From an uncultured Clostridia bacterium (GTDB lineage: Bacteria; Bacillota; Clostridia; TANB77; CAG-508), in NCBI GenBank assembly GCA_963931155.1, contig OZ006978.1, positions 815,469-847,468 on the forward strand: a stretch of 32,000 bases of DNA, in the 5' to 3' direction. How positions within the stretch are numbered: the first letter of the stretch is position 1; every line of letters starts with the position of its first letter. The notes beneath the pieces are model-generated. The model was not told where the DNA came from. It did not search any database and saw nothing but the letters and a program-made list of their open reading frames with translations. The position numbers were made by a program, and so were the translations under genes. This document shows, piece by piece, positions 1-26,523 of this stretch.

Positions 1-3000
1 CAGCTTATTTGTTAATAGATCCTGCTCTCCCTGAAGAAAGAATACAATATATGCTTTCTAATGCGAAATCTAATTTATTAATTACCACTTCGACTATGAA
101 TATTGACTTCACTAATAAATTATTTATAGATAAATTCAATTTTAATTATAAAGAAAAAGAAGTTTGTATTAATGTTGATAATGAATCACTTTTTTGTGTT
201 ATTTACACTTCTGGTTCTACCGGTTTACCTAAAGGTGTAGCCTTAAAAAGAAGTGGAGTTATAAATATGCTAAATAGTTATAAAAAGCTTTTATACACAG
301 ACACATGTCAAAACTTTTTAAGTACAAGTACTGTTGCTTTTGATATGTTTATTGTGGAAAACTTTGTTTCTATTTTATCTGGCAAAACTGTTATTTTAGC
401 AAATGAAGACGAGCAAAAAGTACCTATATTTACTAGTAAGCTTATTGAAAATTATGATGTAGATTTTATATTAAGTACACCTTCTAAACTAGATTTATTA
501 TTATCTGATAGCCAAACAGCTAAATGTTTAGAAAATGTTAAAGTAATTCAATTAGGAGGAGAAGTTTTTAAACCATCATTATATACTAAACTTTCTACAT
601 ATACCAAAGCTAAAATTTTTAACGGCTATGGTCCTTCTGAGTGCACAGCATGTACTACAAACACACAAATAACTAGCGATATTAATATTACTATAGGTAA
701 ACCTTTTCTAAATACAAGAGTTTATATATTAAATGATGATTTAAATATTCTTCCTATAGGATATAATGGCGAAATGTATATTGCAGGGAAAAGCGTTGGA
801 AAAGGCTATATAAATAATGAAGAATTAACTAAAAAAAGCTTTATTAATGATATATTTTCTGGTGGAATAATGTATAAAACTGGCGATTTAGCTAGATACG
901 AAAGTTCTGGAAATTTAGTATATTTAGGTAGAAGAGATTCTCAAATCAAATTACATGGACTTAGAATAGAATTAGAAGAAATAACCAATAAAATTTTAAA
1001 AATTAATAATATAACAAATGCAGTTTCTATTATAAAACAAGTAAACAATATTGATTGTATTTGTTCATATGTTGTTACATCTTCTGATGTCTCTAAAGAA
1101 ACAATACTTGAAGTATTAAAAAAGGAATTGCCTTACTACATGGTTCCATCACATATTGTGTTTTTATCGGAATTACCTATAACTATAAATGGCAAAATTA
1201 ATTTAAGAGCATTGCCTGAGATTGATATTAAGGAGACAAAGTATATTGCTCCAGTTAGCAATACCGAAAAAATCTTAGAAAAAATATGGAAAGAACTTTT
1301 AAATATAGAGAAAGTCAGCATTAATTCTAGTTTCTTTGATTTAGGAGGAGATTCTTTGTGCTCTATAAAATTAGTTTCTGAAGTTTACACAAATTTCAAA
1401 ACTAAAATCAATATCAAGGACATATTTAATTATCCAACTATACGCGAGTTAGGAAAATACATTGATTCTAATATAGCTAATGTTTCTAATGAGGAAATCA
1501 TTAATAAGGCTCCTGTAAGTAGTTCATATCCTCTTAGCTCTGCTCAAAAAAGGATTTATGTTACAGTTAATATGGAGCCTAACAACACTAGTTACAATAC
1601 TCCTGGAGCTATTGTTTTTGATAAATGTCCAGATGTAGAAAAATTAAAAGAAGTTATAAACACTCTTTTGAATAAGCATTGTTCTTTTAAAACATTTTTC
1701 ACTTTGGAAAACTCTGATGTAGTTCAAAAGGTTGTGGATAAAGTTGATTTTCATTTAGATGTAATAAAAAATGAAAAAAAGGATTTTGAAAAACTTCTTG
1801 AGGAATTTGTTAAACCTTTTGATTTATCCACACCTCCTTTATTCAGAGGTAAATTATACATATTTGATGACAATTCATCTGCACTACTAGTTGATATGCA
1901 TCATATTATTTGTGATGGTCATTCTGTTAGTATTTTTATTAATGAATTTTGTAAATTATATAATAACTCACAAATTGAAGACAATACTAACTTAGATTAT
2001 ATCGATTATGCTGTATGGGAAAATAATAATATAAAATCTGAAAAATATAGTTTAGATAAAAAATATTGGGTTAATCAATTTAAGGATGAATTACCTACTT
2101 TAAATATGCCTACCACATATTCAAGACCGGGTATACAATCATTTGAGGGTAGTAAAATAAATAAAACTGTTTCTATAAATAATAAAATAGAAGAATTTTG
2201 CAAAAAAAGCAATGTAACACCATTTATGTTTTTATTATCTGCTTATTACATTTTACTATATAAATACACAAATCAGAATGATATCATTGTTGGAAGTCCT
2301 ATAATTGGCAGAAAAAATAAATCTTTATATAACATAATTGGAATGTTTGTAAATACTTTAGCATTAAGAGCTAAAATAGATTCAAAATCTTCGTTTGAAG
2401 ACTTTTTAAGAATTATATCTTTAAATTGCTTTAATGCATTTGACCATCAAACATATCCTTTTGATGAACTAGTAAAATCTTTAGATATTCCTAGGGATGT
2501 TAGTAGAAATCCACTTTTTGATACAATGCTTACATATCAAAATAATGAAAACGTGGAAATCAATTTGGATGGTGTAAAATCAAGTCACATGGCTTATGAT
2601 AATCATACTTCGAAATTCGACTTTTCTATTGAACTTATACCAAATGATAATGATTTAAACATTACATTGGAATATTGTACTAAATTATTTAGCAAAGAAT
2701 TTATGGAAGTTTTTCTAGAACATTATGTTAATATTCTAGATATTGTTATGTATAATCCTAAGATTTTAATTTCTGAAATTTTAATGCTAACAGAAAAAGA
2801 AAAAAAGACTATTCTTATCGATTTTAATAATAATACACTAAAATATCCTTCTAATAAATCAATAATAGAATTATTTATGGAAAAGGTTTCCGAGTATCCT
2901 GAGAATATTGCTCTAATATTTAAAGATAAACACTTAACTTATAAAGAACTAAATGAAAAATCAGACAAATTAGCAGGATATCTACAATCATTAGGTGTTA

Positions 3001-5816
3001 AAAAAGGTGATATTGTTCCAACTTTACTAAATAGGTCTATAGATCTTATTGTATCCATTCTAGCCATATTAAAATGTGGTGCTATATACTTACCTATTTC
3101 AATACTCCTTCCTAATGAAAGAATAGACTATATACTTAATTCTAGTAATGCAAAGTTAATTATTACTAGTAAACCAATTAATAAAAAGGATTTTCAGAAA
3201 ATTAATATTATTAATATAGAGGATATTCAACTCGACATTAATGTGAACGTACTTGATATTATAAAAACTGATCCAGATGATGTTATTTATACTATTTATA
3301 CATCTGGCTCAACAGGAAATCCTAAAGGTGTACAGGTTACAAATAAAAATTTAAATAATTTTATACATTCATTTAATAATTTGTATAAAAACAAAGTAAA
3401 TTATAAAGACATATGTTTATCATCTACTAATATTTCATTTGACGTAAGTATTTGGGAATTTTTCTTTACTTTACTAAATGGTGCTACTTTATATTTATAT
3501 CCACATGAAAATATAGATGATTTAATAGATTACTGTAAAACTATGATAGAAAATAAAATTACAATGGCATATATTCCACCAAATATATTACAAGAAGTAT
3601 ATTCGATTATACAAAACGAAAAGCTAGCATTAACTAAAATATTAATAGGTGTAGAGCCTATAAAAAATGAAGTTATGCAACAATATTTTAAATTAAATCC
3701 ACAAATGCAAATTATTAATGGATATGGTCCTACAGAAACAACTATATGCTGTACAGCTTTTGAGGTTGAAAAAGATAATGATGAATACTCAACTATTCCT
3801 ATTGGAAAACCTTTACACAATTTATCTGCATATGTTTTAGATGCAGATTTGCAACCTACTCCTATAGGAGTGTATGGAACTTTGTATATAGTTGGTGATA
3901 ATGTAAGCAAAGGATATCTTAATAGCTCAGATTTAACTAAAAAAAGCTATATGCCTTGTATTTTTAATAAATCAAAAATTATGTATAATACTGGTGATAT
4001 TGTTAAATGGCTTCCAAATGGAAATTTAATTTTTAGTGGTAGAAATGATGATCAATTAAAAATTAAAGGACATAGAATAGAAATAAATGAAATAATAAAT
4101 GCCGTATTGCAATATCCTACAATAAATAAATGTCAAGTTATTGTAAAAGAGCATAATAATAACAAATACCTTGTTGCATTTTTTACGGCAAACAAAAAAA
4201 TTATAACAAATGATTTACGAATGTTTTTAGGTTTAAAACTTCCGTTTTATAATATTCCTAATATAATGATTCAATTAGACCAATTTAAGCTAACTGCCAA
4301 TGGAAAAATTGATTTTAAATATTTAAAGAATTACACAATTACATTTGGTACTAAATATGAAGCACCAAGAAATGACTTAGAGAAACATTTAGTCAGTTTA
4401 TGGAAACAGTATTTAGGAATAGAAAAAATAGGAATCACAGATAATTTCTTTGAATTAGGTGGAGATTCACTAATAGCAATTGAACTACAAATTGAAATAT
4501 TTAAACTAGGGTATAACATATCTTATTCTGATATTTTTACTCATCCTACTATTAAAGAATTATCAGCTAAAGCCAATACTAAAGAAACTGAAAAATTAGC
4601 TTTAGATAAATATAATTATTCAACAATTAATAAAAAGATTAGCAAAAATGCTCTTCCTATTTCAACTTCTGAAATACATGAAGCTAAATCTGGAAACATC
4701 TTACTTACAGGCGTTACAGGATTTGTTGGAATACACATTTTAGACAAGCTAATTACAGATACTAATTCTACAATTTATTGTTTAATTAGAAAGAAAAATA
4801 ATATGGATATATTGAAAAGACTTGTTCAAACTTTACACTTCTACTTTGGAAACAAATATGATAATGAAATTGATAAAAGAATTAAGGTTATTGAGGGCAA
4901 TATTGCTGAAGATAGATTTAGTCTTTCTTTAAATCAATATAATGAACTCGGAAAAAATATATCTTATGTTATAAATTCTGCTGCCATAGTAAAACATTAT
5001 GGAAACCAAAATTTGTTTGACCAAACAAATATAAAAGGTGTGCAAAATATTATTGATTTCTGTAAAGACTTTAAAGTAAAATTATATCATATTTCAACAC
5101 TTAGTGTTTCTGGAAATGTATTTGCAGAAGACAGCTATACTACTACAGATTTGGAACATAAAACTGTGTTTAAAGAAAATAATTTATTTGTAAAACAAAA
5201 CTTATCTAATATATACATACATACTAAATTTGTTGCAGAAAGATTGATATTGGAAAATATTAATAATGATTTTAAAGCAACTATTATAAGACTTGGAAAC
5301 ATTACAAGTAGATATTCTGATGGAAAATTCCAAATTAATGTTTCTGAAAATGCTTTTGTAAATAGATTAGTTTCATTTATGAAATTACAAAGCATACCAG
5401 ATTATTTAAGTGAAGGATATCTTGAATTTACTCCGGTAGACATATGTGCAGAAGCTATTGTAAAAATTATGGGACACAATTTTCCTTATACAATTTTTCA
5501 TTTGTATAACAATAATCATGTAGTTATGAATAAAATGATATCATATTTAAAAGATTATGGTATTAATATTAATATAGTAAATAACGAAAAATTTATAGAT
5601 CTAGTAAATGCTTCATTAAAAAATGATAAATCTATGCTATCTGGTATTATTAATGATTTTGATTCAAACAAAAAATTAATATACGAATCAAATATTGAAT
5701 TAAATAATGAATTCACTAATGAATTTTTAAAAAAAATAGGATTTGTATGGCCAGAAATTAATGAAGATTATATCTTTAAATATTTCGACTATCTAAAAAA
5801 TATTAATTATATTTAA
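1..5816 (+). CDS. Non-ribosomal peptide synthetase, 5'-truncated by the window edge; visible architecture (A)-T-C-A-T-R with a terminal thioester reductase
   Basis: The frame is open to the left edge. Codons GCT TAT before the TTG used by the ORF track give AYLLIDP, an internal adenylation motif. A1 motifs: YTSGSTGLPKG (aa 66-76), NGYGPSE, YKTGDLA, GRRDSQIKLHGLRIELEEI, NGKINLRAL. Carrier 1: FFDLGGDSL (Ser449, nt ~1353). Condensation: MHHIICDGHS (nt 1896-1925). A2 motifs: YTSGSTGNPKG (aa 1097-1107), NGYGPTETT, YNTGDIV, GRNDDQLKIKGHRIEINEI, NGKIDFKYL. Carrier 2: FFELGGDSL (Ser1487, nt ~4467). Reductase: LLTGVTGFVG Rossmann motif and YIHTK (YxxxK). Approximate domain spans: A1 <1-1223, T1 1251-1457, C 1515-2783, A2 2841-4328, T2 4362-4568, R 4695-5813. 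Stop TAA at 5814-5816. Confidence 0.93.
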   Translation, partial: AYLLIDPALPEERIQYMLSNAKSNLLITTSTMNIDFTNKLFIDKFNFNYKEKEVCINVDNESLFCVIYTSGSTGLPKGVALKRSGVINMLNSYKKLLYTDTCQNFLSTSTVAFDMFIVENFVSILSGKTVILANEDEQKVPIFTSKLIENYDVDFILSTPSKLDLLLSDSQTAKCLENVKVIQLGGEVFKPSLYTKLSTYTKAKIFNGYGPSECTACTTNTQITSDINITIGKPFLNTRVYILNDDLNILPIGYNGEMYIAGKSVGKGYINNEELTKKSFINDIFSGGIMYKTGDLARYESSGNLVYLGRRDSQIKLHGLRIELEEITNKILKINNITNAVSIIKQVNNIDCICSYVVTSSDVSKETILEVLKKELPYYMVPSHIVFLSELPITINGKINLRALPEIDIKETKYIAPVSNTEKILEKIWKELLNIEKVSINSSFFDLGGDSLCSIKLVSEVYTNFKTKINIKDIFNYPTIRELGKYIDSNIANVSNEEIINKAPVSSSYPLSSAQKRIYVTVNMEPNNTSYNTPGAIVFDKCPDVEKLKEVINTLLNKHCSFKTFFTLENSDVVQKVVDKVDFHLDVIKNEKKDFEKLLEEFVKPFDLSTPPLFRGKLYIFDDNSSALLVDMHHIICDGHSVSIFINEFCKLYNNSQIEDNTNLDYIDYAVWENNNIKSEKYSLDKKYWVNQFKDELPTLNMPTTYSRPGIQSFEGSKINKTVSINNKIEEFCKKSNVTPFMFLLSAYYILLYKYTNQNDIIVGSPIIGRKNKSLYNIIGMFVNTLALRAKIDSKSSFEDFLRIISLNCFNAFDHQTYPFDELVKSLDIPRDVSRNPLFDTMLTYQNNENVEINLDGVKSSHMAYDNHTSKFDFSIELIPNDNDLNITLEYCTKLFSKEFMEVFLEHYVNILDIVMYNPKILISEILMLTEKEKKTILIDFNNNTLKYPSNKSIIELFMEKVSEYPENIALIFKDKHLTYKELNEKSDKLAGYLQSLGVKKGDIVPTLLNRSIDLIVSILAILKCGAIYLPISILLPNERIDYILNSSNAKLIITSKPINKKDFQKINIINIEDIQLDINVNVLDIIKTDPDDVIYTIYTSGSTGNPKGVQVTNKNLNNFIHSFNNLYKNKVNYKDICLSSTNISFDVSIWEFFFTLLNGATLYLYPHENIDDLIDYCKTMIENKITMAYIPPNILQEVYSIIQNEKLALTKILIGVEPIKNEVMQQYFKLNPQMQIINGYGPTETTICCTAFEVEKDNDEYSTIPIGKPLHNLSAYVLDADLQPTPIGVYGTLYIVGDNVSKGYLNSSDLTKKSYMPCIFNKSKIMYNTGDIVKWLPNGNLIFSGRNDDQLKIKGHRIEINEIINAVLQYPTINKCQVIVKEHNNNKYLVAFFTANKKIITNDLRMFLGLKLPFYNIPNIMIQLDQFKLTANGKIDFKYLKNYTITFGTKYEAPRNDLEKHLVSLWKQYLGIEKIGITDNFFELGGDSLIAIELQIEIFKLGYNISYSDIFTHPTIKELSAKANTKETEKLALDKYNYSTINKKISKNALPISTSEIHEAKSGNILLTGVTGFVGIHILDKLITDTNSTIYCLIRKKNNMDILKRLVQTLHFYFGNKYDNEIDKRIKVIEGNIAEDRFSLSLNQYNELGKNISYVINSAAIVKHYGNQNLFDQTNIKGVQNIIDFCKDFKVKLYHISTLSVSGNVFAEDSYTTTDLEHKTVFKENNLFVKQNLSNIYIHTKFVAERLILENINNDFKATIIRLGNITSRYSDGKFQINVSENAFVNRLVSFMKLQSIPDYLSEGYLEFTPVDICAEAIVKIMGHNFPYTIFHLYNNNHVVMNKMISYLKDYGININIVNNEKFIDLVNASLKNDKSMLSGIINDFDSNKKLIYESNIELNNEFTNEFLKKIGFVWPEINEDYIFKYFDYLKNINYI

Positions 5817-18657: not shown

Positions 18658-18690
18658 AAAGGTCTATATGAAATGTAGACCTTTATTATT
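18658..18690 (+). terminator. Terminator hairpin
   Basis: AAAGGTCTA (18658-18666) pairs with TAGACCTTT (18676-18684), followed by a T-rich tail. Confidence 0.6.
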
Positions 18691-18712
18691 TATAAAGGAA
18701 GGTATTTGAATT

Positions 18713-19099
18713 ATGCTATGTGCTAATTGCGGTCAGAAAATTTTAAATAAAAGGAAATTTTGTAGTCTTAAATGTCAAAAAGAATTTCAATATAATAATT
18801 ATATTCTTAAATGGAAACAAGGAGAAATTAATGGCATAAGAGGCGAATATCAAATATCAATGTATATAAAAACATATCTTTTTAAAAAATATAATAATAA
18901 ATGTGCTAGATGTGGTTGGGGAGAGAAAAATAAATATACTAATACAATTCCACTTGAAGTAGAACATATAGATGGGAATTATAAAAATAACAAGGAAGAA
19001 TATTTAATTTTGTTGTGTCCAAATTGTCATTCTTTGACCGCAACATATAAAGGAGCGAATTTAAATCATGGTAGAAAATCAAGAAAAAAATATAGTTAA
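18713..19099 (+). CDS. Free-standing HNH endonuclease with an N-terminal zinc-ribbon
   Basis: CANCGQ...CSLKC and CARCGW cysteine pairs are present. HNH core: EVEHIDGNYKNNKEEYLILLCPNCH. The 3' end overlaps the next gene by 32 nt. Confidence 0.8.
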   Translation: MLCANCGQKILNKRKFCSLKCQKEFQYNNYILKWKQGEINGIRGEYQISMYIKTYLFKKYNNKCARCGWGEKNKYTNTIPLEVEHIDGNYKNNKEEYLILLCPNCHSLTATYKGANLNHGRKSRKKYS

Positions 19100-19824
19100 T
19101 AAGGTTGTTATTGTAACAGGGGGCTCTAGAGGAATAGGTGCTGAAATAGTAAGAACATTGGCTAGAAATGGTTATTTAGTTATATTAAATTATAATAAAT
19201 CAAAACAGTGTGCTAAAAATGTGGAAAACGAATTAAAAAAAGATGGATTTTTTATAGATGTTTTTAAAGCAGATGTATCAAAAAGAGATGAAGCAGATAA
19301 TTTAATAAAATTTACGATAAAAAAATATGGCAAAATTGATGTTTTAATAAATAATGCCGGAATATCACAAACAAAAATATTTACAGATATAACAGATGAA
19401 GATTGGAAGCATATGCTAGATGTTAATCTAAATTCAGCATTTTATTGCTCTAGAGAAGCTGTTAAAAATATGATTCATAATAAATCCGGTTTGATAATTA
19501 ACATCTCATCTATATGGGGAGTTACTGGTAGTAGTTGTGAGGTACATTATTCTACAGCCAAAGCTGGATTAATTGGTTTTACAAAAGCATTAGCTAAAGA
19601 ACTTCGGACCTTCAAATATTAGAGTTAATGCTATTGCACCTGGAATAATAGATACTGATATGAATAAAGAATATTCAAAAGGTGATATAGATGGGATAAT
19701 GGAAGAAATACCTTTAGAAAGAATTGGTACTACTGAAAATATAGCTAAATGTGTTTGTTGGATGATTGATGATGATTATACAACAGGAGAAGTCGTGTCT
19801 ATAAACGGTGGATGGGATATTTAA
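19068..19824 (+). pseudogene. FabG-like short-chain dehydrogenase/reductase disrupted by a +1 frameshift near 19605
   Basis: Frame A (19068-19622) carries VIVTGGSRGIG, NNAG and YSTAK, then ends KELRTFKY*. Frame +1 continues to TAA 19822-19824 as NIRVNAIAPGIIDTDM ... GEVVSINGGWDI. Removing one C from CTTCGGACC restores KELGPSNIRVNAIAPG. Confidence 0.8.
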
Positions 19825-19828
19825 ATAT

Positions 19829-19861
19829 AAAAAAAGAACTAGAAATTCTAGTTCTTTTTTT
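19829..19861. terminator. Bidirectional terminator between the SDR gene and the 3' end of the tRNA operon
   Basis: GAACTAG / CTAGTTC stem flanked by an A-run and a T-run (AAAAAAGAACTAGAAATTCTAGTTCTTTTTT). Confidence 0.8.
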
Positions 19862-19864
19862 ATT

Positions 19865-20179
19865 TGGAGCCACTTGTCCGACTTGAACGGACGACCTACT
19901 GATTCATACTACTATAATTTTCATTACCACAAATGTGTTTGTAGTCTGGACTTTCTCTTTACCATAGCTGACGCCTTAGGTACATCGTATAAAGTCTCTA
20001 CACTCAAAGATTTAAAATCTTTTAGCTCGGGATTAGCATATAATAATTACTTAGCCTTCCCCGAATTAGCGATGTCCACTATGTACGTTTCCATATATAG
20101 GTGCAAGATAGTTCAAAATAAAACTCAATGTTTTATCTATCCCACAAGTCAGTTGCTCTACCAACTGAGCTAAAGTGGC
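19865..20179 (-). tRNA. tRNA-Thr (anticodon UGU) interrupted by a group I intron after position 36
   Basis: Minus-strand exon 1 (20179-20144): GCCACTTTAGCTCAGTTGGTAGAGCAACTGACTTGT. Exon 2 (19904-19865): AATCAGTAGGTCGTCCGTTCAAGTCGGACAAGTGGCTCCA. Joined, they form a canonical 76-nt cloverleaf: acceptor GCCACTT/AAGTGGC, anticodon stem ACTGA/TCAGT, loop CTTGTAA, T arm GTCCG-TTCAAGT-CGGAC. Confidence 0.88.
19905..20143 (-). ncRNA. Group I self-splicing intron (IC3-like, 239 nt, no ORF)
   Basis: All classic conserved elements are present on the minus strand: P AATTCGGGGAAGG (20055-20067), Q AATCCCGAGC, R GTGTAGAGACT (19993-20003), S AAAGAGAAAGTCC. P1 is a 10-bp helix in which exon TGT plus intron GGGATAG pairs with CTATCTTGCA, placing a U:G wobble at the 5' splice site. 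P2 is capped by a GAAA tetraloop. The last intron base is G (omega-G). Blocks such as CCTAAGGCGTCAGCTATGGTAAAGAGAAAGTCCA closely resemble the Anabaena tRNA-Leu and Azoarcus tRNA-Ile introns as I recall them. Confidence 0.85.
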
Positions 20180-20183
20180 ATTT

Positions 20184-20258
20184 TGGTGACCCCGACGGGA
20201 ATCGAACCCATGTCTCCGCCGTGAAAGGGCGATGTCTTAACCGCTTGACCACGGGGCC
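20184..20258 (-). tRNA. tRNA-Glu (anticodon UUC)
   Basis: Minus strand: GGCCCCGTGGTCAAGCGGTTAAGACATCGCCCTTTCACGGCGGAGACATGGGTTCGATTCCCGTCGGGGTCACCA. The anticodon loop is CTTTCAC. Confidence 0.92.
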
Positions 20259-20295
20259 AGATTCTTACTAGGACCTTTGTAAGTCCTAGTTTTTT

Positions 20296-20371
20296 TGGTG
20301 AGCCATCGCGGATTCGAACCGCGGACAACTTGATTAAAAGTCAAGTGCTCTACCACCTGAGCTAATGACCC
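20296..20371 (-). tRNA. tRNA-Lys (anticodon UUU)
   Basis: Minus strand: GGGTCATTAGCTCAGGTGGTAGAGCACTTGACTTTTAATCAAGTTGTCCGCGGTTCGAATCCGCGATGGCTCACCA. The anticodon loop is CTTTTAA. Confidence 0.92.
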
Positions 20372-20409
20372 AAGTAAGTACTCACGTATACTTTGTAAAC
20401 GCAAGTATT

Positions 20410-20438
20410 ATTTTAAACTATTTTCATTTATTTGTCAA
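20410..20438 (-). promoter_or_regulatory. Sigma-A promoter of the tRNA Lys-Glu-Thr operon
   Basis: On the minus strand: TTGACA (20438-20433), 17-nt spacer, TAAAAT (20415-20410). An AT-rich UP-like region lies upstream. The promoter sits about 38 nt ahead of tRNA-Lys. Confidence 0.75.
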
Positions 20439-21121: not shown

Positions 21122-22831
21122 ATGTTGTTTTCTTTTGTTTACTGTTTCATAGGTTATTTATTATTTAATACCATTTTAACATCAAACAAGGTTATAATTA
21201 CTTATGGAGTTCATCCTTTTAATATATGTACGCAAAATCCAACTCTATGGCTGTATATAAAATATACTTTTATTATTTCATATGTCTTTTCATCCTTTAT
21301 AATAGGCAATCTTGTTTATCTTTTTCTTAAAGAATTTTTTAATTTCATTCTTTCATTGCTTAAGAAAATTCTTTTTAAATTCCAAAAAAGAAATATTGAA
21401 ATCTCCAAACATTTACAAAACAACAATGAAATATCTCTATTTATTGGCAATAATTCAGAAACCCAAACTCCCGTATATGTTTCTCAAAGTAGTTTATATC
21501 AAAATATTTTAATTACTGGTACAATTGGTACAGGAAAAACTTCTAGTGCAATGTATCCTTTTACTAAACAATTAATGCATTTTAATAGCAATAATAATTT
21601 AAATAAACTTGGTATGCTCATATTAGATGTAAAAGGAAATTATCATTTAAAAGTTTTAGATTTCTCTAAGGAATTTAATAGAGAAGATGATGTTATTGTT
21701 ATTAGAGTAAATGGAAAATACAAATATAACCCACTTCATAAACCTGATCTTAAACCATCTGTCATTGCCAATCGACTTAAAACCATATTATTATTATTTT
21801 CTCCTAACAATTCCGAATCTTTTTGGTTAGATAAAGTAGAACAAGTTTTAACAGAAGCAATTAAGTTGTGTAGACTATATAATGATGAATATGTAACTTT
21901 TGAAGAAATTCATAAATTGATTTCCTATGAAAATTATTACAAAGAAAAAATTGAGATTTTAAAAAGCAAATTCAGATTAAACGTTTTTTCTAAAGAAGAT
22001 TTATATAATTTACTTTCTTCCCTTACCTTTTTTCAAAAAGAATTCTTTTCTTTGGATCATAGAACTTTGTCTATTTTAAAATCTGAAATAACTAGAATTA
22101 CCAACGTTTTTGTATCTGATTATGAAATATATAATACTTTTAACCCTCCTAAGGATAAATTAAATTTTTTAGGTTTTGAACAACTATTAAGTGAAGGAAA
22201 AATTGTTGTATTGGATATTAGTGTTTCAAAATATAAAGCTTTATCTAAAATAATTGCCACTTATCTAAAATTAGATTTTCAGACAGAAGTATTAAATAGG
22301 CTTTCTAACAATTTTAGATATTCTAAAAGAAGTGTTGCTTTTATCTGTGATGAATTTCATGAATATTGCACAATTTCTGATAGTGAATTTTTTGCCCAAA
22401 GTAGAGAAGCAAAATGTATTAATATAATATCCACTCAAAGCTATACTTCTATTTTAAATGCTTTAAATAATAAATCAGCTACAGAAGTTATTATACAAAA
22501 TTTAGTTAATAAAATTTGGCTTAGGACCGATGATTTATTTACAATAGAATCTGCCCAAAAACAAGTTGGCAAAGAAGATAAAGAAAAACTATTTAAAAGC
22601 ATTTCTGAAAATGCTTCAGAAACCAATTATAGTTATATAACTCATTCTCTAAATTCATCTAATTCTAATATTTCCGAAAGTATTTCCACTCAAGTAAGTT
22701 ATGAGTATAAGTATGATACCAATTTTTTCACTCAAGAATTAGAAACCTTCTCTTCTTTAGTTTTTCTTTCTAATGGAGAAAAAATTTTAGAGCCACAAAA
22801 GATTAATTTAAAACCATATTTTAAATTATAA
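21122..22831 (+). CDS. Type IV coupling protein (VirD4/TraG/TraD-like ATPase) with an N-terminal membrane anchor
   Basis: Two N-terminal TM segments. Walker A: ILITGTIGTGKTSS (nt ~21518-21544), then LILDVKGNY. Walker B: AFICDEFHEY (nt ~22349), then IISTQSY. The true start may be the non-canonical ATC 21101 or ATT 21098, directly behind AGGAGG 21088-21093. Confidence 0.7.
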   Translation: MLFSFVYCFIGYLLFNTILTSNKVIITYGVHPFNICTQNPTLWLYIKYTFIISYVFSSFIIGNLVYLFLKEFFNFILSLLKKILFKFQKRNIEISKHLQNNNEISLFIGNNSETQTPVYVSQSSLYQNILITGTIGTGKTSSAMYPFTKQLMHFNSNNNLNKLGMLILDVKGNYHLKVLDFSKEFNREDDVIVIRVNGKYKYNPLHKPDLKPSVIANRLKTILLLFSPNNSESFWLDKVEQVLTEAIKLCRLYNDEYVTFEEIHKLISYENYYKEKIEILKSKFRLNVFSKEDLYNLLSSLTFFQKEFFSLDHRTLSILKSEITRITNVFVSDYEIYNTFNPPKDKLNFLGFEQLLSEGKIVVLDISVSKYKALSKIIATYLKLDFQTEVLNRLSNNFRYSKRSVAFICDEFHEYCTISDSEFFAQSREAKCINIISTQSYTSILNALNNKSATEVIIQNLVNKIWLRTDDLFTIESAQKQVGKEDKEKLFKSISENASETNYSYITHSLNSSNSNISESISTQVSYEYKYDTNFFTQELETFSSLVFLSNGEKILEPQKINLKPYFKL

Positions 22832-22848
22832 TTAATTAAAGGAGGTAC

Positions 22849-23208
22849 ATGTTTATGCTTGTTAAATTTAATAAATTAATTTTCTTTATTCTTTTTACTT
22901 TACTCTTATTATTTATTTTTTATTTTTTTACATATAGTACAGTTTTTGCTGGTCTTTTTGATAATACACCTGAATTAGTAACAACTTTGAATAATGCTTT
23001 TGAAGATATTGAAGGCTGGCTTCTTACTCTTGCTACACCTGCGGCTGCCGTTGCAGTTGGTGTTGGTGTTTTTATGAAAAAGTTTAGTTTTGGTGATGAA
23101 GAAAGAATTCGTATTGCTAAAAAATTAATTAGAGGTTCTCTATTTTCTTATGCTTTTATCTTAGCAATAAACTTAATTTTATCTGCTATTCAATCCTTAA
23201 TAAAATAA
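22849..23208 (+). CDS. Small secreted or membrane protein with VirB2/TrbC/Maff2-like topology (signal peptide plus two hydrophobic helices)
   Basis: GGAGG at 22841-22845. ATG 22855 (9-nt spacing) is a likelier start than 22849. Signal-like N-terminus: LIFFILFTLLLLFIFYFFTYSTVFA. Helices LLTLATPAAAVAVGVGVFM and SLFSYAFILAINLILSAI are separated by a charged loop, KKFSFGDEERIRIAKKLIRG. Confidence 0.4.
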   Translation: MFMLVKFNKLIFFILFTLLLLFIFYFFTYSTVFAGLFDNTPELVTTLNNAFEDIEGWLLTLATPAAAVAVGVGVFMKKFSFGDEERIRIAKKLIRGSLFSYAFILAINLILSAIQSLIK

Positions 23209-23225
23209 TTCTACTGGAGGTTTAA

Positions 23226-24116
23226 TTGGAAGAAACAATATCTAATTCTGCAAATATTTCGCAAATAATAATCGATACAATAAATACTTTATTAAGCACA
23301 CTTTTTTCTTCTATAGATAATAGTGTTTATGATTTGTTAGACAAATTAGCTTTTATAAATATAAATATATTTGATGACTCTTTACTTGAAAAATTATTTG
23401 GGTATAACTCAAGTAATGGTATTTTAATAATTGCAAATTCATTACTTTTTGCTGTTTGTTTATATTATTGTTTTAAACTACTATATGCACATTTAACTGG
23501 AATTTCTATAGATAACCCTTATCAATTTATTTTTAAATTATTAATATTTGGATGTATAATTAATGCTTCTTATTTTATTTGTGAATTTTTTATTTATTTT
23601 ACATCCCTTATTTCCGATGCAATACTTGGAGTTGGAAAATTTGTTTTAAATGAAGATATAACTTTTTCTAATTTAATTCAAAATCTTAACTCTTCTATTT
23701 CAGTCGATACTACAACTCTAAATGTGTTTTCTTTTGATGGTTTGCTTAAAAGCCTGTGTTCTATTAGTTTTATTAATTTAATTCTTTCATATTCTCTTCG
23801 CTATATAATGATTAAAGTATTAATTCTTATTACTCCTTTTGCTATACTTACTCTTATAAATTCTTCTACTGCATGGTTTTTTAAGGCTTGGCTTAAAATA
23901 TTTTTATCATTACTTTTTATTCAACCTTTTATTTCAATTATTTTGTTAATATTCTTTTCTCTTGATTTTAGCAGTTCAAATATCACATCAAAAATATTAT
24001 GTATTGGAGCCATGTATGCTTTAATAAAATCTAATTCTTATGTTCAACATTTTATTGGTGGAATTTCTACTAGTGTTTATACTAATATGAAATCATTAAG
24101 AACTAAATTTAGGTAA
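23226..24116 (+). CDS. Polytopic membrane protein (VirB6/TrbL-like by position and topology)
   Basis: TTG start lies 6 nt after GGAGG (23215-23219). At least 6 hydrophobic segments are present. No catalytic motif was seen. Confidence 0.4.
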   Translation: MEETISNSANISQIIIDTINTLLSTLFSSIDNSVYDLLDKLAFININIFDDSLLEKLFGYNSSNGILIIANSLLFAVCLYYCFKLLYAHLTGISIDNPYQFIFKLLIFGCIINASYFICEFFIYFTSLISDAILGVGKFVLNEDITFSNLIQNLNSSISVDTTTLNVFSFDGLLKSLCSISFINLILSYSLRYIMIKVLILITPFAILTLINSSTAWFFKAWLKIFLSLLFIQPFISIILLIFFSLDFSSSNITSKILCIGAMYALIKSNSYVQHFIGGISTSVYTNMKSLRTKFR

Positions 24117-24145
24117 AGCATAAATTCGCTCGAATGGAGGTTACA

Positions 24146-24430
24146 ATGAATTTTATTTTTCCACAAAATTATAATTTAAATAGTAAATTTCTTGGTTTTA
24201 TTGACTATACAACTATTATTTTAAATGTTATTTGGGGTATTTTTATTTTTGCATTTGTTTATTTCCTTATTCCAAATATTACTTTAAAAGTATGTATTTT
24301 TATAATCTTGTTCTTTCCTTTTACTTTATTTAGTATAATTGGATTTAATCATGAAAAAATTTTATATGTTTTAAAATATTTATATTTTTATATAAAACGT
24401 CCAAAATTATATTTATACAAAAAATATTAA
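24146..24430 (+). CDS. 94-aa two-TM protein (VirB3/TcpE/PrgI-like by size, topology and position)
   Basis: I chose ATG 24146 because GGAGG lies 5 nt upstream. The track start at 24134 is part of that SD. Hydrophobic hairpin: TTIILNVIWGIFIFAFVYFLI and VCIFIILFFPFTLFSIIGF. Confidence 0.4.
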   Translation: MNFIFPQNYNLNSKFLGFIDYTTIILNVIWGIFIFAFVYFLIPNITLKVCIFIILFFPFTLFSIIGFNHEKILYVLKYLYFYIKRPKLYLYKKY

Positions 24431-24463
24431 TGATAAACTTTAAATATTTTGTCGTTTTATAGA

Positions 24464-24492
24464 TTGTAAATTCATCTTTATAATGATATAAT
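24464..24492 (+). promoter_or_regulatory. Promoter of the dnaD/dnaI-like operon
   Basis: TTGTAA (24464-24469), 17-nt spacer, TATAAT (24487-24492). GGGGGG SD at 24511-24516. Confidence 0.6.
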
Positions 24493-24525
24493 CATGTCTA
24501 TACTTTTATAGGGGGGATTTATTAA

Positions 24526-25494
24526 ATGAAACTTGAAAATGCAGATGTATCATCACTTTTCTCAAATACTCTAATACCTGATATATTTTTCTCAGAATAT
24601 TTATCAGAAGCAAACGGTGACTTTATAAAAGTATATTTATATATGATATTTTTATCTAAATATAATAAAGATATCAAAATAAATGATTTATCTAAAAAAC
24701 TAGTACTCCCTGTTAAAACAATACAAGATGCTGTAAAGTATTGGGAAGAGCAAGGTTTAATTACTAAGAAAAATACTGGTTATATTATTAATAATATTCA
24801 AGAAATTGAATTACATAAATTATATAAACCTAAAACGGCCTTGTCTGCAGATCAACTTCAAAAGTCTACAGAAAATCAAAAACGTGCAAAGGCAATTGAT
24901 TTTATTAATAATAAATATTTTTCTGGCTTAATGCCTACTACATGGTATCCAGAAATTGAACTTTGGTTCAAAAAATACAATTTTGATGAAGAAGTTATGA
25001 TTGCGCTTTTTGGTTATTGTTTTGATAAGTCTGCCCTTCATAAAAATTATGTTCAAACCGTTGCGGAAGCATGGTCTCAAAATAATATTAAAACTTTTAA
25101 TGATTTAGATATTTATTATGAAAAACAAGAAAAATTAAAACTTATTGCAAAAACAATTTCAAAAAAATTAGGGCTTTCTAGAAGTCTTACACAATACGAA
25201 TTTGCATATATAGAAAAATGGAATATTGATTTTGGATATGGTTTAGATGTAATTGAAATTGCTTTAAAAAGAACAACCTCAAAAGCAAACCCTAATTTTG
25301 ACTATCTAGATAAATTATTAACAGATTGGCATGATAGAGGTTTTAAGACACCTACTGAAGTTCAAAGTTTCTTATCAGAAATGAAGAATAAAAATAAAAG
25401 TATAAAAAAACTTGAAAAAGATACAGGTTACGATAAATATGATCAAAGATCTTATTCAGATTTAGATAACCTTTATATAAATTTAAAAAAATAA
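24526..25494 (+). CDS. DnaD-domain replication initiation protein (B. subtilis DnaB/DnaD-like, two DnaD-type C-terminal repeats)
   Basis: A winged-helix-like N-terminus (FIKVYLYMIFLS ... IQDAVKYWEEQGLI) is followed by two repeats ending in the DnaD-type pattern: YVQTVAEAWSQNNIKT and NFDYLDKLLTDWHDRGFKTPTEV. Confidence 0.75.
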   Translation: MKLENADVSSLFSNTLIPDIFFSEYLSEANGDFIKVYLYMIFLSKYNKDIKINDLSKKLVLPVKTIQDAVKYWEEQGLITKKNTGYIINNIQEIELHKLYKPKTALSADQLQKSTENQKRAKAIDFINNKYFSGLMPTTWYPEIELWFKKYNFDEEVMIALFGYCFDKSALHKNYVQTVAEAWSQNNIKTFNDLDIYYEKQEKLKLIAKTISKKLGLSRSLTQYEFAYIEKWNIDFGYGLDVIEIALKRTTSKANPNFDYLDKLLTDWHDRGFKTPTEVQSFLSEMKNKNKSIKKLEKDTGYDKYDQRSYSDLDNLYINLKK

Positions 25495-25518
25495 ATTGAA
25501 ATAATTGGAGGCTTTTTT

Positions 25519-26523
25519 GTGAATTCTATTTTAAAAAACATTTTAAATCAATACAATCAAAAGAAGTCTAAAGCCGAATATGAGGCTGAGATTAGAAAAC
25601 AAAAGTTATATAAAAATTATCCCGAACTTCAAGAGATTGATAATAATTTAACAACACTTGCTATTTCTACTGCTAAATCATTAATTAATAATAATGATAA
25701 ACAATTACTTGATAATCTTAATAAAAATATAACTCAATTAAAAGAAAAGAAAAAAAAGATTCTGAAATCTTTAAATCTTTCAGAAGATTACTTTTCACCA
25801 CATTATGAATGTCCAATATGTAAAGATTCTGGATATATTACAAACTCAGATTATACTACTTCTATGTGTAGTTGCTTAAAACAAAGATTATATGATGAAC
25901 AATATAATAAATCAAATATTTCAAATTTAGATATACAGAATTTTAATAATTTTTCAGATTTATTATATTCAGATATTCCAGATAAAAATAAATATCATAC
26001 AGATTTATCACCTAGGGAGAACATAAATTTAATAAAAAATATCTGTATTGATTTTATAAAAAATTTTGATGATAAAACTAAGAATAATCTTTTATTTACT
26101 GGAAATACTGGACTTGGAAAAACTTTTCTTTCTAGTTGCATTGCAAATGAACTAATTAAATCAGGTAAAAACGTACTTTATCAAACAGCACCTGTAATGC
26201 TAGATTCTATTATTGATTATAGATTTGGAAAGACTAAAGATTATAATATTTTAGATAGTATATTAAATGTAGATTTATTAATTATTGACGATTTAGGAAC
26301 TGAATGTATTAACAATATGAAATTTACTGAACTATTTAATATTATTAATACTAGGTTATTAAATCAAAATAAAATAACTAAAACTATCATATCTACTAAT
26401 TTAAGTTTAAAAAATCTATATGCAACTTATGATGAACGTATAGTTTCAAGAATTGTTGGAAATTACGATATATGTTATTTTTTTGGTGATGATATTAGAT
26501 TTAAAAAAAGGAATATTTCTTAA
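25519..26523 (+). CDS. DnaI/DnaC-type helicase loader (N-terminal zinc-binding motif plus IstB-like AAA+ ATPase)
   Basis: GTG start lies 7 nt after GGAGG (25507-25511). Zinc motif: CPICKDSGY ... CSC. Walker A: FTGNTGLGKTFL. Walker B: LLIIDDLG. Sensor region: IISTNL ... DERIVSRI. Confidence 0.8.
   Translation: MNSILKNILNQYNQKKSKAEYEAEIRKQKLYKNYPELQEIDNNLTTLAISTAKSLINNNDKQLLDNLNKNITQLKEKKKKILKSLNLSEDYFSPHYECPICKDSGYITNSDYTTSMCSCLKQRLYDEQYNKSNISNLDIQNFNNFSDLLYSDIPDKNKYHTDLSPRENINLIKNICIDFIKNFDDKTKNNLLFTGNTGLGKTFLSSCIANELIKSGKNVLYQTAPVMLDSIIDYRFGKTKDYNILDSILNVDLLIIDDLGTECINNMKFTELFNIINTRLLNQNKITKTIISTNLSLKNLYATYDERIVSRIVGNYDICYFFGDDIRFKKRNIS

Follow-up and report, generated by a model that had tools for sequence, protein, structure and literature searches.

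The stretch of DNA analysed here, a window of 32,000 nucleotides (nt) from an uncultured Clostridia bacterium, contains on its minus strand a cluster of genes for tRNA-Lys, tRNA-Glu and tRNA-Thr(UGU), the last of which is interrupted in the anticodon loop by a group I intron devoid of an open reading frame (ORF). The window also contains, 766 nt from the tRNA-Thr gene, a free-standing gene for an HNH endonuclease that was missed in the first-pass annotation of this DNA. The features on which our interpretation rests are:

20184 to 20371, minus strand: tRNA-Lys(UUU) and tRNA-Glu(UUC), located upstream in the tRNA cluster (ARAGORN, Rfam)
20144 to 20179, minus strand: tRNA-Thr(UGU) exon 1, tRNA positions 1-36, 36 nt, ending ACTGACTTGT (anticodon UGU; ARAGORN -i)
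19905 to 20143, minus strand: group I intron, 239 nt, no ORF, starting GGG and ending G (RF00028, covariation, and the alignment break in the intronless locus L260)
19865 to 19904, minus strand: tRNA-Thr(UGU) exon 2, tRNA positions 37-76, 40 nt, starting AATCAGT, with encoded CCA (ARAGORN -i)
18713 to 19099, plus strand: free-standing HNH endonuclease gene, 128 amino acids (aa), N-terminal treble-clef zinc finger plus HNH (homology)

We consider it highly probable that the intron is a self-splicing ribozyme of the IC3 type which resides in a chromosomal Lys-Glu-Thr tRNA operon and is partnered with the free-standing HNH gene in collaborative homing.

The first-pass annotation had proposed that a 36-nt and a 40-nt half on the minus strand join into a 76-nt tRNA-Thr(UGU), and had suggested an intron-aware ARAGORN run as well as a search with the Rfam model RF00028 as checks. 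With its intron search, ARAGORN indeed calls tRNA-Thr(tgt) i(37,239) on the minus strand, and the spliced 76-nt sequence, whose predicted junction reads ...CTGACTTGT|AATCAGT..., is a canonical tRNA-Thr(UGU) cloverleaf. The intron is inserted between tRNA positions 36 and 37, and the anticodon stem (27-31/39-43) is intact. As had been anticipated for standard tRNA callers, default ARAGORN output lacks the interrupted tRNA-Thr and contains only the neighbouring tRNA-Lys and tRNA-Glu. A 121-aa ORF running across the tRNA-Thr gene (19808-20173, plus strand) likewise does exist, but the accompanying statement that ORF callers report it is not supported, as it is not among the public gene calls for the same locus. 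Since ACA accounts for 222 of the 403 Thr codons in ten long window ORFs, tRNA-Thr(UGU) is in heavy demand.

The identity of the intervening sequence is supported by a match to RF00028 (Intron_gpI) which extends from 20131 to 19927 on the minus strand, covers the full length of the model, and was obtained in an Rfam scan of positions 19700-20400 with a score of 57.6 bits (E 5.7e-14), compared with a gathering score of 50 bits. The G+C content of the matched stretch is 36%. A scan of the whole window at the gathering threshold with fast filters listed no intron; this is due to the speed filters, as the 700-nt scan finds it. All four P/Q/R/S motifs that had been named from the sequence are present in the intron, with AATTCGGGGAAGG pairing with AATCCCGAGC to form P4, and GTGTAGAGACT with AAAGAGAAAGTCC to form P7. 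When compared with the sequences printed in the seed alignment of Williams 2020, the intron (i) can be aligned over its whole core with the seeds from Azoarcus tRNA-Ile2 and Synechococcus tRNA-Leu, with 52% identity to both, in line with the resemblance to the Azoarcus tRNA-Ile(CAU) and cyanobacterial tRNA-Leu(UAA) introns that had been noted earlier, (ii) is 59% identical to the seed Mti5.Thr.3Ug, with core strings in common, and (iii) has P4, P7 and P8 strings in common with classical IC3 members. According to that preprint, a group I intron database labels each of the four classical bacterial tRNA intron types as IC3 (bioRxiv 10.1101/2020.01.27.920355). The anticodon-loop site and the resemblance to these members thus suggest to classify the intron as IC3-type.

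The structure model was drawn by hand in pre-tRNA numbering, in which the window coordinate equals 20180 minus the position, and was assessed in an alignment (A1) of 70 intron copies that are less than 96% identical to one another. It comprises the following elements:

Pre-tRNA 34-43 / 69-78, minus strand: P1, 10 bp
20137 to 20146, minus strand: 5' strand of P1, consisting of U34 G35 U36 and the first 7 intron bases, with the 5' splice site after U36; partner at 20102-20111
20102 to 20111, minus strand: internal guide sequence CUAUCUUGCA, the 3' strand of P1, of which UU can also pair with A37 A38 (P10)
Pre-tRNA 44-62, minus strand: P1 extension hairpin
20079 to 20100 (pre-tRNA 80-101), minus strand: P2 hairpin, with a GAAA tetraloop at 20088-20091 (pre-tRNA 89-92)
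Pre-tRNA 105-110 / 193-198, minus strand: P3, pseudoknotted with P7
Pre-tRNA 116-121 / 148-153, minus strand: P4, UCGGGG/UCCCGA; P4 and P5 span 20027 to 20064
Pre-tRNA 125-144, minus strand: P5, within P4, with a GAAA-receptor-like CUAAG...UAUG motif
Pre-tRNA 154-178, minus strand: P6 and P6a
Pre-tRNA 182-189 / 226-232, minus strand: P7, A-GACUUU / AAAGUCC with an A bulge, enclosing the 3' strand of P3 and P8; span 19948 to 19998
Pre-tRNA 199-219, minus strand: P8, with the 11-nt receptor CCUAAG...UAUGG
Pre-tRNA 235-272 (region 19905 to 19945), minus strand: three-way junction of P9, P9a and P9b, the last of which is capped by GAAA
19905 (pre-tRNA 275), minus strand: terminal G, invariant

Standard pairs make up 97.7% of the pair cells in the 70 copies, compared with 35-40% when the partners are slid by 1-3 columns, and compensatory (two-sided) changes are found at 51 of the 100 modelled pairs. 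Of 500 shuffles, none reached the observed value for four of the five measures; the remaining measure, which counts further pair types, was reached by 4. As expected for the catalytic core, P4, P6 and P7 do not vary, and covariation is evident in every peripheral helix. P3, P5, P6a, P8 and P9 covary, as do all three helices of the P9 junction, while compensatory changes occur at 3 pairs of P1 and at 8 of the 9 pairs of P2. The three-way junction, which covaries, was preferred to another possible P9 pairing (ACUACAA/UUAUAGU). The U36:G (G76) wobble is retained in all 68 informative homologues, and the GAAA loop on P2, the terminal G and the TTGCAC of the guide strand are constant in the alignment. 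The 10-bp P1 with a U:G pair at U36, the GAAA-capped P2 and the terminal G had been noted in the window copy by the first-pass annotation. An unpaired UUUGAA (20112-20117, minus strand; pre-tRNA 63-68) separates the P1 extension hairpin from the guide strand. Of its six positions, four are 90-100% conserved, and no pairing partner for it was identified in the 70-sequence alignment. The conservation of the fold and the compensatory changes argue for selection for an active fold; with sequence, fold and conservation observed, we infer from the family that the ribozyme is active.

The distribution of the intron was surveyed in 185,579 species genomes, using a pattern composed of tRNA-Thr(UGU), the guide sequence and the P4 strand, and uninterrupted genes with the same first 48 nt were sought in metagenomes; each scan yielded a list of 120 loci, which is a lower bound. 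A tRNA-Thr(tgt) with an intron at 36/37 is present in 113 of the 120 loci listed for the genomes, and thus in at least 113 species-representative genomes of gut Firmicutes, so that rarity of the intron is not supported. Its length is mostly 205-245 nt among the listed loci. The hosts are uncultured gut Clostridia, Bacilli, Lachnospiraceae, Oribacterium, Erysipelotrichaceae and Mollicutes, and the animals from which the intron-bearing genomes derive are rabbit, human, ruminant, chicken and mouse. More than 75 of the listed intron-bearing loci exhibit the Lys-Glu-Thr context seen in the window, and about 25 exhibit a Val-Thr-Tyr-Gln-Lys... context, that is, the main tRNA operon of Bacilli and Mollicutes genomes. 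A scaffold of Clostridium sp. CAG:780 (L222) contains tandem duplications of intron and exon-2 segments in tRNA-Thr, yielding a 437-nt 'intron'; these duplications may be a misassembly.

Among the listed intronless loci, 94 of 120 have the Lys-Glu-Thr setting (84 as Lys-Glu-Thr alone and 10 as partial or extended versions), 7 have a tRNA-Thr(UGU) with the same 5' half in another cluster, Thr-Tyr(-Gly-Thr), and 22 metagenome alleles have a tRNA identical to the spliced product of the window. In the intronless locus L260, with flanks about 80% identical to those of the window and the same gene order, the alignment to the window ends at 19904 and restarts at 20144, exactly at the predicted junctions. 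The intron hence represents a precise presence/absence polymorphism among related bacteria.

In three genomes, moreover, the tRNA-Tyr(GUA) gene beside tRNA-Thr is interrupted as well, after U35 (ACUGU|AAAUC), by an intron of 226-238 nt:

L184, 5543-5860, minus strand: tRNA-Tyr(GUA) with intron
L187, 960-1281, minus strand: tRNA-Tyr(GUA) with intron
L193, 4701-5010, minus strand: tRNA-Tyr(GUA) with intron

The ribozyme in tRNA-Tyr is 92-100% identical to that of the tRNA-Thr intron of the same genome, and the guide sequence is the same. Comparison of these sequences suggests that the intron jumped recently to tRNA-Tyr as a new host, at a UGU|AA site. A near-identical ribozyme in the adjacent tRNA-Tyr at UGU|AA lends independent support to intron mobility.

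The HNH protein encoded in the window is 59% identical over its full length of 128 aa (E 9e-57) to a protein encoded within the intron of L193. The Pfam family HNH is matched by 36 of 41 homologues at E-values of up to 1e-3 (best 1e-6), and the residues H85, N93, N104 and H106 as well as the cysteines C64/C67/C102/C105 are invariant across the homologues. Searches of the PDB with sequence and profile returned no significant match, NCBIfam returned only a sub-threshold match, to the HNH region of IscB, and an AlphaFold single-sequence model (pLDDT 37) was discarded. The ratio of nonsynonymous to synonymous substitution rates (dN/dS) is 0.10-0.33 against 39 homologues; the HNH gene is under purifying selection.

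The linkage of this gene family to the intron is evident in two ways. In 14 of the listed loci, mostly from Bacilli and Mollicutes, the intron is 618-630 nt long and contains an endonuclease ORF located in L5, which encodes 136-154 aa where intact, is frameshifted in some cases, and likewise specifies an N-terminal treble-clef finger and an HNH motif. The P5, P4 and P6 strands of the ribozyme also encode the last residues of the embedded protein (...SLYANPEL; e.g., L193 5020-5720), so that one stretch serves both protein and ribozyme; the free-standing protein of the window ends just before this SLYANPEL tail. One intron of 336 nt contains an HNH remnant only. Furthermore, tblastn detects an HNH homologue in 72 of the 120 listed genome loci, namely 14 within the intron, about 50 located 36-250 nt downstream of tRNA-Thr on the same strand, and 2 on the opposite strand. 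When the count is restricted to intact HNH copies and to loci whose downstream sequence extends for 600 nt or more, the gene is present in 50 of 98 intron-bearing loci (39 free-standing and 11 embedded) versus 1 of 104 intronless loci (Fisher p ~2e-18), a value which overstates the certainty because two different collections are compared and shared ancestry is ignored. In L188 and L199, two of the seven closest relatives of the window, the HNH gene is located 64 nt downstream of tRNA-Thr on the same strand; in the other five it is absent or present as a remnant only. A 1.15-kb block (18681-19825), comprising the HNH gene and a frameshifted dehydrogenase gene, is inverted in the window relative to all seven.

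The same intron family is plentiful in viral contigs. A pattern scan of IMG/VR yielded at least 120 contigs (L008-L127), with the core strings AATTCGGGGAA, AATCCCGAGC, GTGTAGAGACTT and AAGAGAAAGTCC, and the gathering score of RF00028 is exceeded in 6 of the 9 viral loci tested. The viral hosts are tRNA-Arg(UCU), Leu(UAA), Phe(GAA), Asn(GUU), Lys(UUU), Thr, Tyr and Ser as well as a suppressor-like tRNA with anticodon UUA (L068). A 2014 review placed all phage introns known at that time in protein-coding genes (PMC3984707). A blastn search of GenBank phage records with the tRNA-Thr gene matched only the 36-nt exon. Four viral contigs contain full-length HNH homologues that are 57-60% identical to the window protein:

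L074, 3838-4221: HNH homologue, within a tRNA-Tyr(GUA) intron of about 580 nt
L123, 2321-2707: HNH homologue, within a tRNA-Tyr(GUA) intron of about 580 nt
L106, 10047-10433: HNH homologue
L028, 1309-1683: HNH homologue

Viral contigs with tRNA introns also contain other RNA elements, at L123 3256-3875, L074 5530-5937, L083 2004-2040 and L021 959-995; these are ROOL RNA (305 bits), transfer-messenger RNA, and abiF RNA motifs directly beside interrupted tRNA-Arg genes.

The window (25.4% G+C) encodes Tex, GyrA, CorA, an ABC-F protein, a VanW-like protein and a LexA-like repressor, and is therefore considered to be part of a bacterial chromosome. The nearest species-representative genomes are annotated as 'uncultured Clostridia bacterium' or 'uncultured Clostridium sp.', are 92-93% identical over the gene, and have the flanking gene order in common with the window; in seven related species, synteny with the window extends over the Lys-Glu-Thr cluster and its flanking genes (VanW, LexA-like, CBM, SDR). 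Public metagenome assemblies contain 22 contigs that encode the protein of 19068-19622. Of the seven metagenome loci fetched, six extend across the tRNA gene, and in each of these both gene and intron are identical to the window; exon 1 is identical in L001-L006. This protein is the larger of two parts (184 and 54 aa) into which a short-chain dehydrogenase gene (19068-19824, plus strand) is split by a frameshift, the NIRVNAIAPG motif of the dehydrogenase running on in the +1 frame. A read error does not account for the split, since it recurs in the metagenome copies L001-L007. Two further elements were noted around the tRNA operon:

20410 to 20438, minus strand: promoter-like TTGACA-17-TAAAAT upstream of tRNA-Lys, with 11/12 consensus matches
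19830 to 19862, either strand: A/T-flanked hairpin AAAAAAAGAACTAGAAATTCTAGTTCTTTTTTT directly after the tRNA 3' end, read from the sequence

Promoter and terminator scans around the tRNA operon and the HNH gene gave counts not above shuffled expectation. The promoter-like site is weak evidence for this reason, and the hairpin, which is likely a two-way terminator judging from its sequence, was passed over by the terminator scan because its stem has too few G-C pairs. Beside the tRNA cluster, the region 21122-26523 (plus strand) encodes a TrwB/TraG-like coupling protein, a T4SS-pilin-like protein and two ORFs without family match, followed by DnaB_2-domain and DnaI/IstB-like genes; these could be either the remnant of a conjugative element or housekeeping replication genes. 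A 1935-aa ORF at 9-5816 (plus strand) starts near the window edge.

In the mechanism that we propose, P1 would arise by pairing of the guide sequence with the UGU anticodon plus the seven leading bases of the intron, with a wobble at U36:G, and the guide would thereby select U36 as the 5' splice site. Free guanosine bound in P7 would attack after U36, and its place would then be taken by the terminal G (19905). With the anticodon stem and a 2-bp P10 between A37 A38 and the UU of the guide keeping the exons in position, their ligation would yield a normal 76-nt tRNA. The two GAAA tetraloops (L2 and L9b) may brace the fold by docking in the 11-nt-type receptors of P8 and P5. The most likely target of the HNH enzyme would be tRNA-Thr(UGU) genes devoid of the intron, cut in or close to the insertion site, whereupon intron and nuclease gene might be copied in together, i.e., by collaborative homing, and the intron would shield the tRNA gene of its own host from cleavage. 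The HNH gene is most likely the intron's homing endonuclease acting from outside the intron. The HNH ORF embedded in L5 might then represent the fused end state, and remnants and intronless alleles might represent later stages of the cycle.

Several observations weigh against this interpretation. The score of the window protein for Pfam HNH (20.6 bits) is just below the cut-off of 21.4; 29 of the 98 intron-bearing loci lack an HNH gene and a further 19 have remnants only; 22 listed intronless loci contain short HNH remnants; the window gene itself is on the strand opposite to tRNA-Thr, 766 nt away and within the inverted block; and one intronless locus (L290 1206-1720, on a contig with ~1.9x coverage) pairs an intact HNH gene, preceded by an AGGAGG site and 64 nt downstream of tRNA-Thr, with an uninterrupted tRNA-Thr, so that the intron is not strictly required for the enzyme to be tolerated. 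Along with the precedent of free-standing endonucleases in tRNA clusters, such as T4 SegB (PMC2330249), the locus L290, the remnants beside intronless alleles, the 29 loci without the gene and the placement of the window gene would suit an intron that splices next to an HNH gene unrelated to its mobility, i.e., an independent selfish or defence nuclease favouring tRNA-gene sites. We regard this as unlikely, if deserving of serious consideration, since the same protein family is encoded within the intron in 14 genomes, where its last residues derive from the ribozyme core, and within viral tRNA-Tyr introns, and since the frequency of intact copies is about 50-fold higher next to intron-bearing than next to intronless alleles. 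A further view is that this is a true group I intron which does not self-splice unaided but needs a protein helper, either a host chaperone or the HNH protein acting in the manner of a maturase. The AT-richness of the intron, its short helices, the purifying selection on HNH even where the intron appears fixed, and the finding that an endonuclease can gain another function, possibly that of a maturase (PMC3984707), are compatible with such dependence. The ribozyme is nonetheless still intact in the very loci that lack HNH or have remnants only, and two tetraloops with receptor motifs together with full core pairings are features of its small, robustly self-splicing Azoarcus relative (PMC13168695), which makes the need for a helper quite improbable.

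The two remaining alternatives concern the status of the interrupted gene itself. If it were part of a conjugative element or an integrated phage and not of the core genome, the TrwB/TraG-like and T4SS-pilin-like genes at 21122-23208 and the abundance of the intron family in viral contigs would be readily accounted for. Such an origin is, however, highly improbable and was rejected on synteny: the cluster with its flanks is conserved in the seven related species, the same cluster is found in the 94 listed intronless loci, and in Bacilli and Mollicutes the intron is located in the main tRNA operon. Barely credible is a decayed, non-splicing relic, with tRNA-Thr as a pseudogene and ACA decoded by another copy. 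A single A-C mismatch in P2 of the window copy, a further point against our interpretation, could be viewed as a sign of decay, and second copies are conceivable in light of the 7 intronless loci with tRNA-Thr(UGU) in a Thr-Tyr(-Gly-Thr) cluster. Yet 70 diverged copies have an invariant core and maintain their helices through compensatory changes, the exons are identical to those of working intronless alleles, the locus is identical in six independent metagenome assemblies, and no second intact tRNA-Thr(UGU) was seen in any intron-bearing locus fetched (loci of up to ~10 kb).

With a mobile ribozyme and an external homing endonuclease as the preferred explanation, it is tempting to go one step further and to speculate that active tRNA group I introns, driven by one HNH family, form a large population in the chromosomes of gut Firmicutes and in phages, and that the locus captures the birth pathway of mobile introns with every stage visible. 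These stages would be the free-standing HNH gene in Clostridia, the L5-embedded gene in Bacilli and Mollicutes, decayed remnants, precise intron loss, and jumps to tRNA-Tyr. For this wider proposal, taken as a whole, we see even chances of its being right or wrong.

Since default tRNA finders miss the gene, many uncultured gut Clostridia, Bacilli and Mollicutes will seem to be devoid of tRNA-Thr(UGU), which decodes ACA, the commonest Thr codon of these bacteria, and estimates of genome completeness and codon capacity will be wrong unless intron-aware tools are used. If the interrupted gene is the sole tRNA-Thr(UGU) copy, translation in these bacteria depends on a ribozyme. The free-standing, embedded and decayed forms of HNH in hundreds of related loci also provide a natural series for testing the collaborative-homing model, which so far rests on two phage examples (PMC3984707). 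Finally, an AT-rich, compact and well-supported ribozyme and a nuclease presumed to be specific for a tRNA gene are candidate tools. It is the nuclease linkage that is the part worth following up.

The intron type as such is already catalogued, and it is the nuclease partnership that appears not to have been described before. A 2014 review does not mention a tRNA-Thr host ('tRNA-Thr' occurs 0 times in its text; PMC3984707). A screen of 80,413 genomes then increased the number of host/position types of tRNA group I introns from 4 to 21, and its seed alignment includes Thr.5Ug (36/37 position), Thr.3Ug and Thr.2Ug (Williams 2020; bioRxiv 10.1101/2020.01.27.920355). Because these Thr seeds are named there, the claim of the first-pass annotation that a tRNA-Thr host had not been described falls at the catalogue level. 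Thr.5Ug agrees with the window intron in host isotype, loop position, U-1 and terminal G, and the latter would be filed there. The Thr.5Ug seed (Rba53), however, is GC-rich, has a P1 (ggU/A) implying the anticodon GGU, and is only 47% identical to the window intron, indicative of a different lineage. The text of the preprint, as far as available, is silent on an HNH partner, and our literature searches returned no description of the HNH partnership, its stages, or the spread to tRNA-Tyr.

Among the classical introns, that of tRNA-Ile(CAU) from Azoarcus sp. BH72 (IC3, 'Ile2.5Ug') is likewise small and without ORF. It resembles the window intron in (i) a guide that pairs with the anticodon triplet and a 3' exon of 40 nt (PMC13168695), (ii) a GAAA loop on P2 and a P8 reading CCUAAG-GC-loop-GC-UAUGG, and (iii) near-identical core strings (AAUUCGG.GAA, GUGUAGAGACU and AGUCCAG), at 52% identity overall. 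The Azoarcus host, however, is a tRNA-Ile in a betaproteobacterium rather than a tRNA-Thr(UGU) in Clostridia, and the window intron is longer (239 versus 205 nt), is far more AT-rich, and possesses, besides a long hairpin that extends P1 and contains UUUGAA as a conserved internal loop, a three-way P9 junction. Such a three-way P9 with a GAAA-capped arm, together with an IC3 core and the motif GGUAAAG.G..AGUCCA, is found in the cyanobacterial and plastid tRNA-Leu(UAA) intron ('Leu.3Ug'; 52% identity to the Sel1 seed), which is inserted at 34/35 instead of 36/37 and differs in host tRNA and phylum.

Collaborative homing has been described for F-CphI and the psbA intron of cyanophage S-PM2, and for T4 mobE and the I-TevIII intron (PMC3984707, PMC6083498). 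As in these systems, an ORF-less or defunct-ORF group I intron is accompanied in the window by a free-standing endonuclease gene beside the interrupted gene, and the relatives with an ORF inside the intron represent the end state that the collaborative-homing model predicts. The window differs in that the host is a tRNA gene on a bacterial chromosome and not a protein-coding gene of a phage, and in that the enzyme is an HNH protein with an N-terminal treble-clef finger, compared with the Endo VII-type motif of F-CphI. The endonuclease of the Synechocystis tRNA-fMet intron, in turn, belongs to the PD-(D/E)XK family and not to HNH, and differs from the window system in host tRNA and phylum as well.

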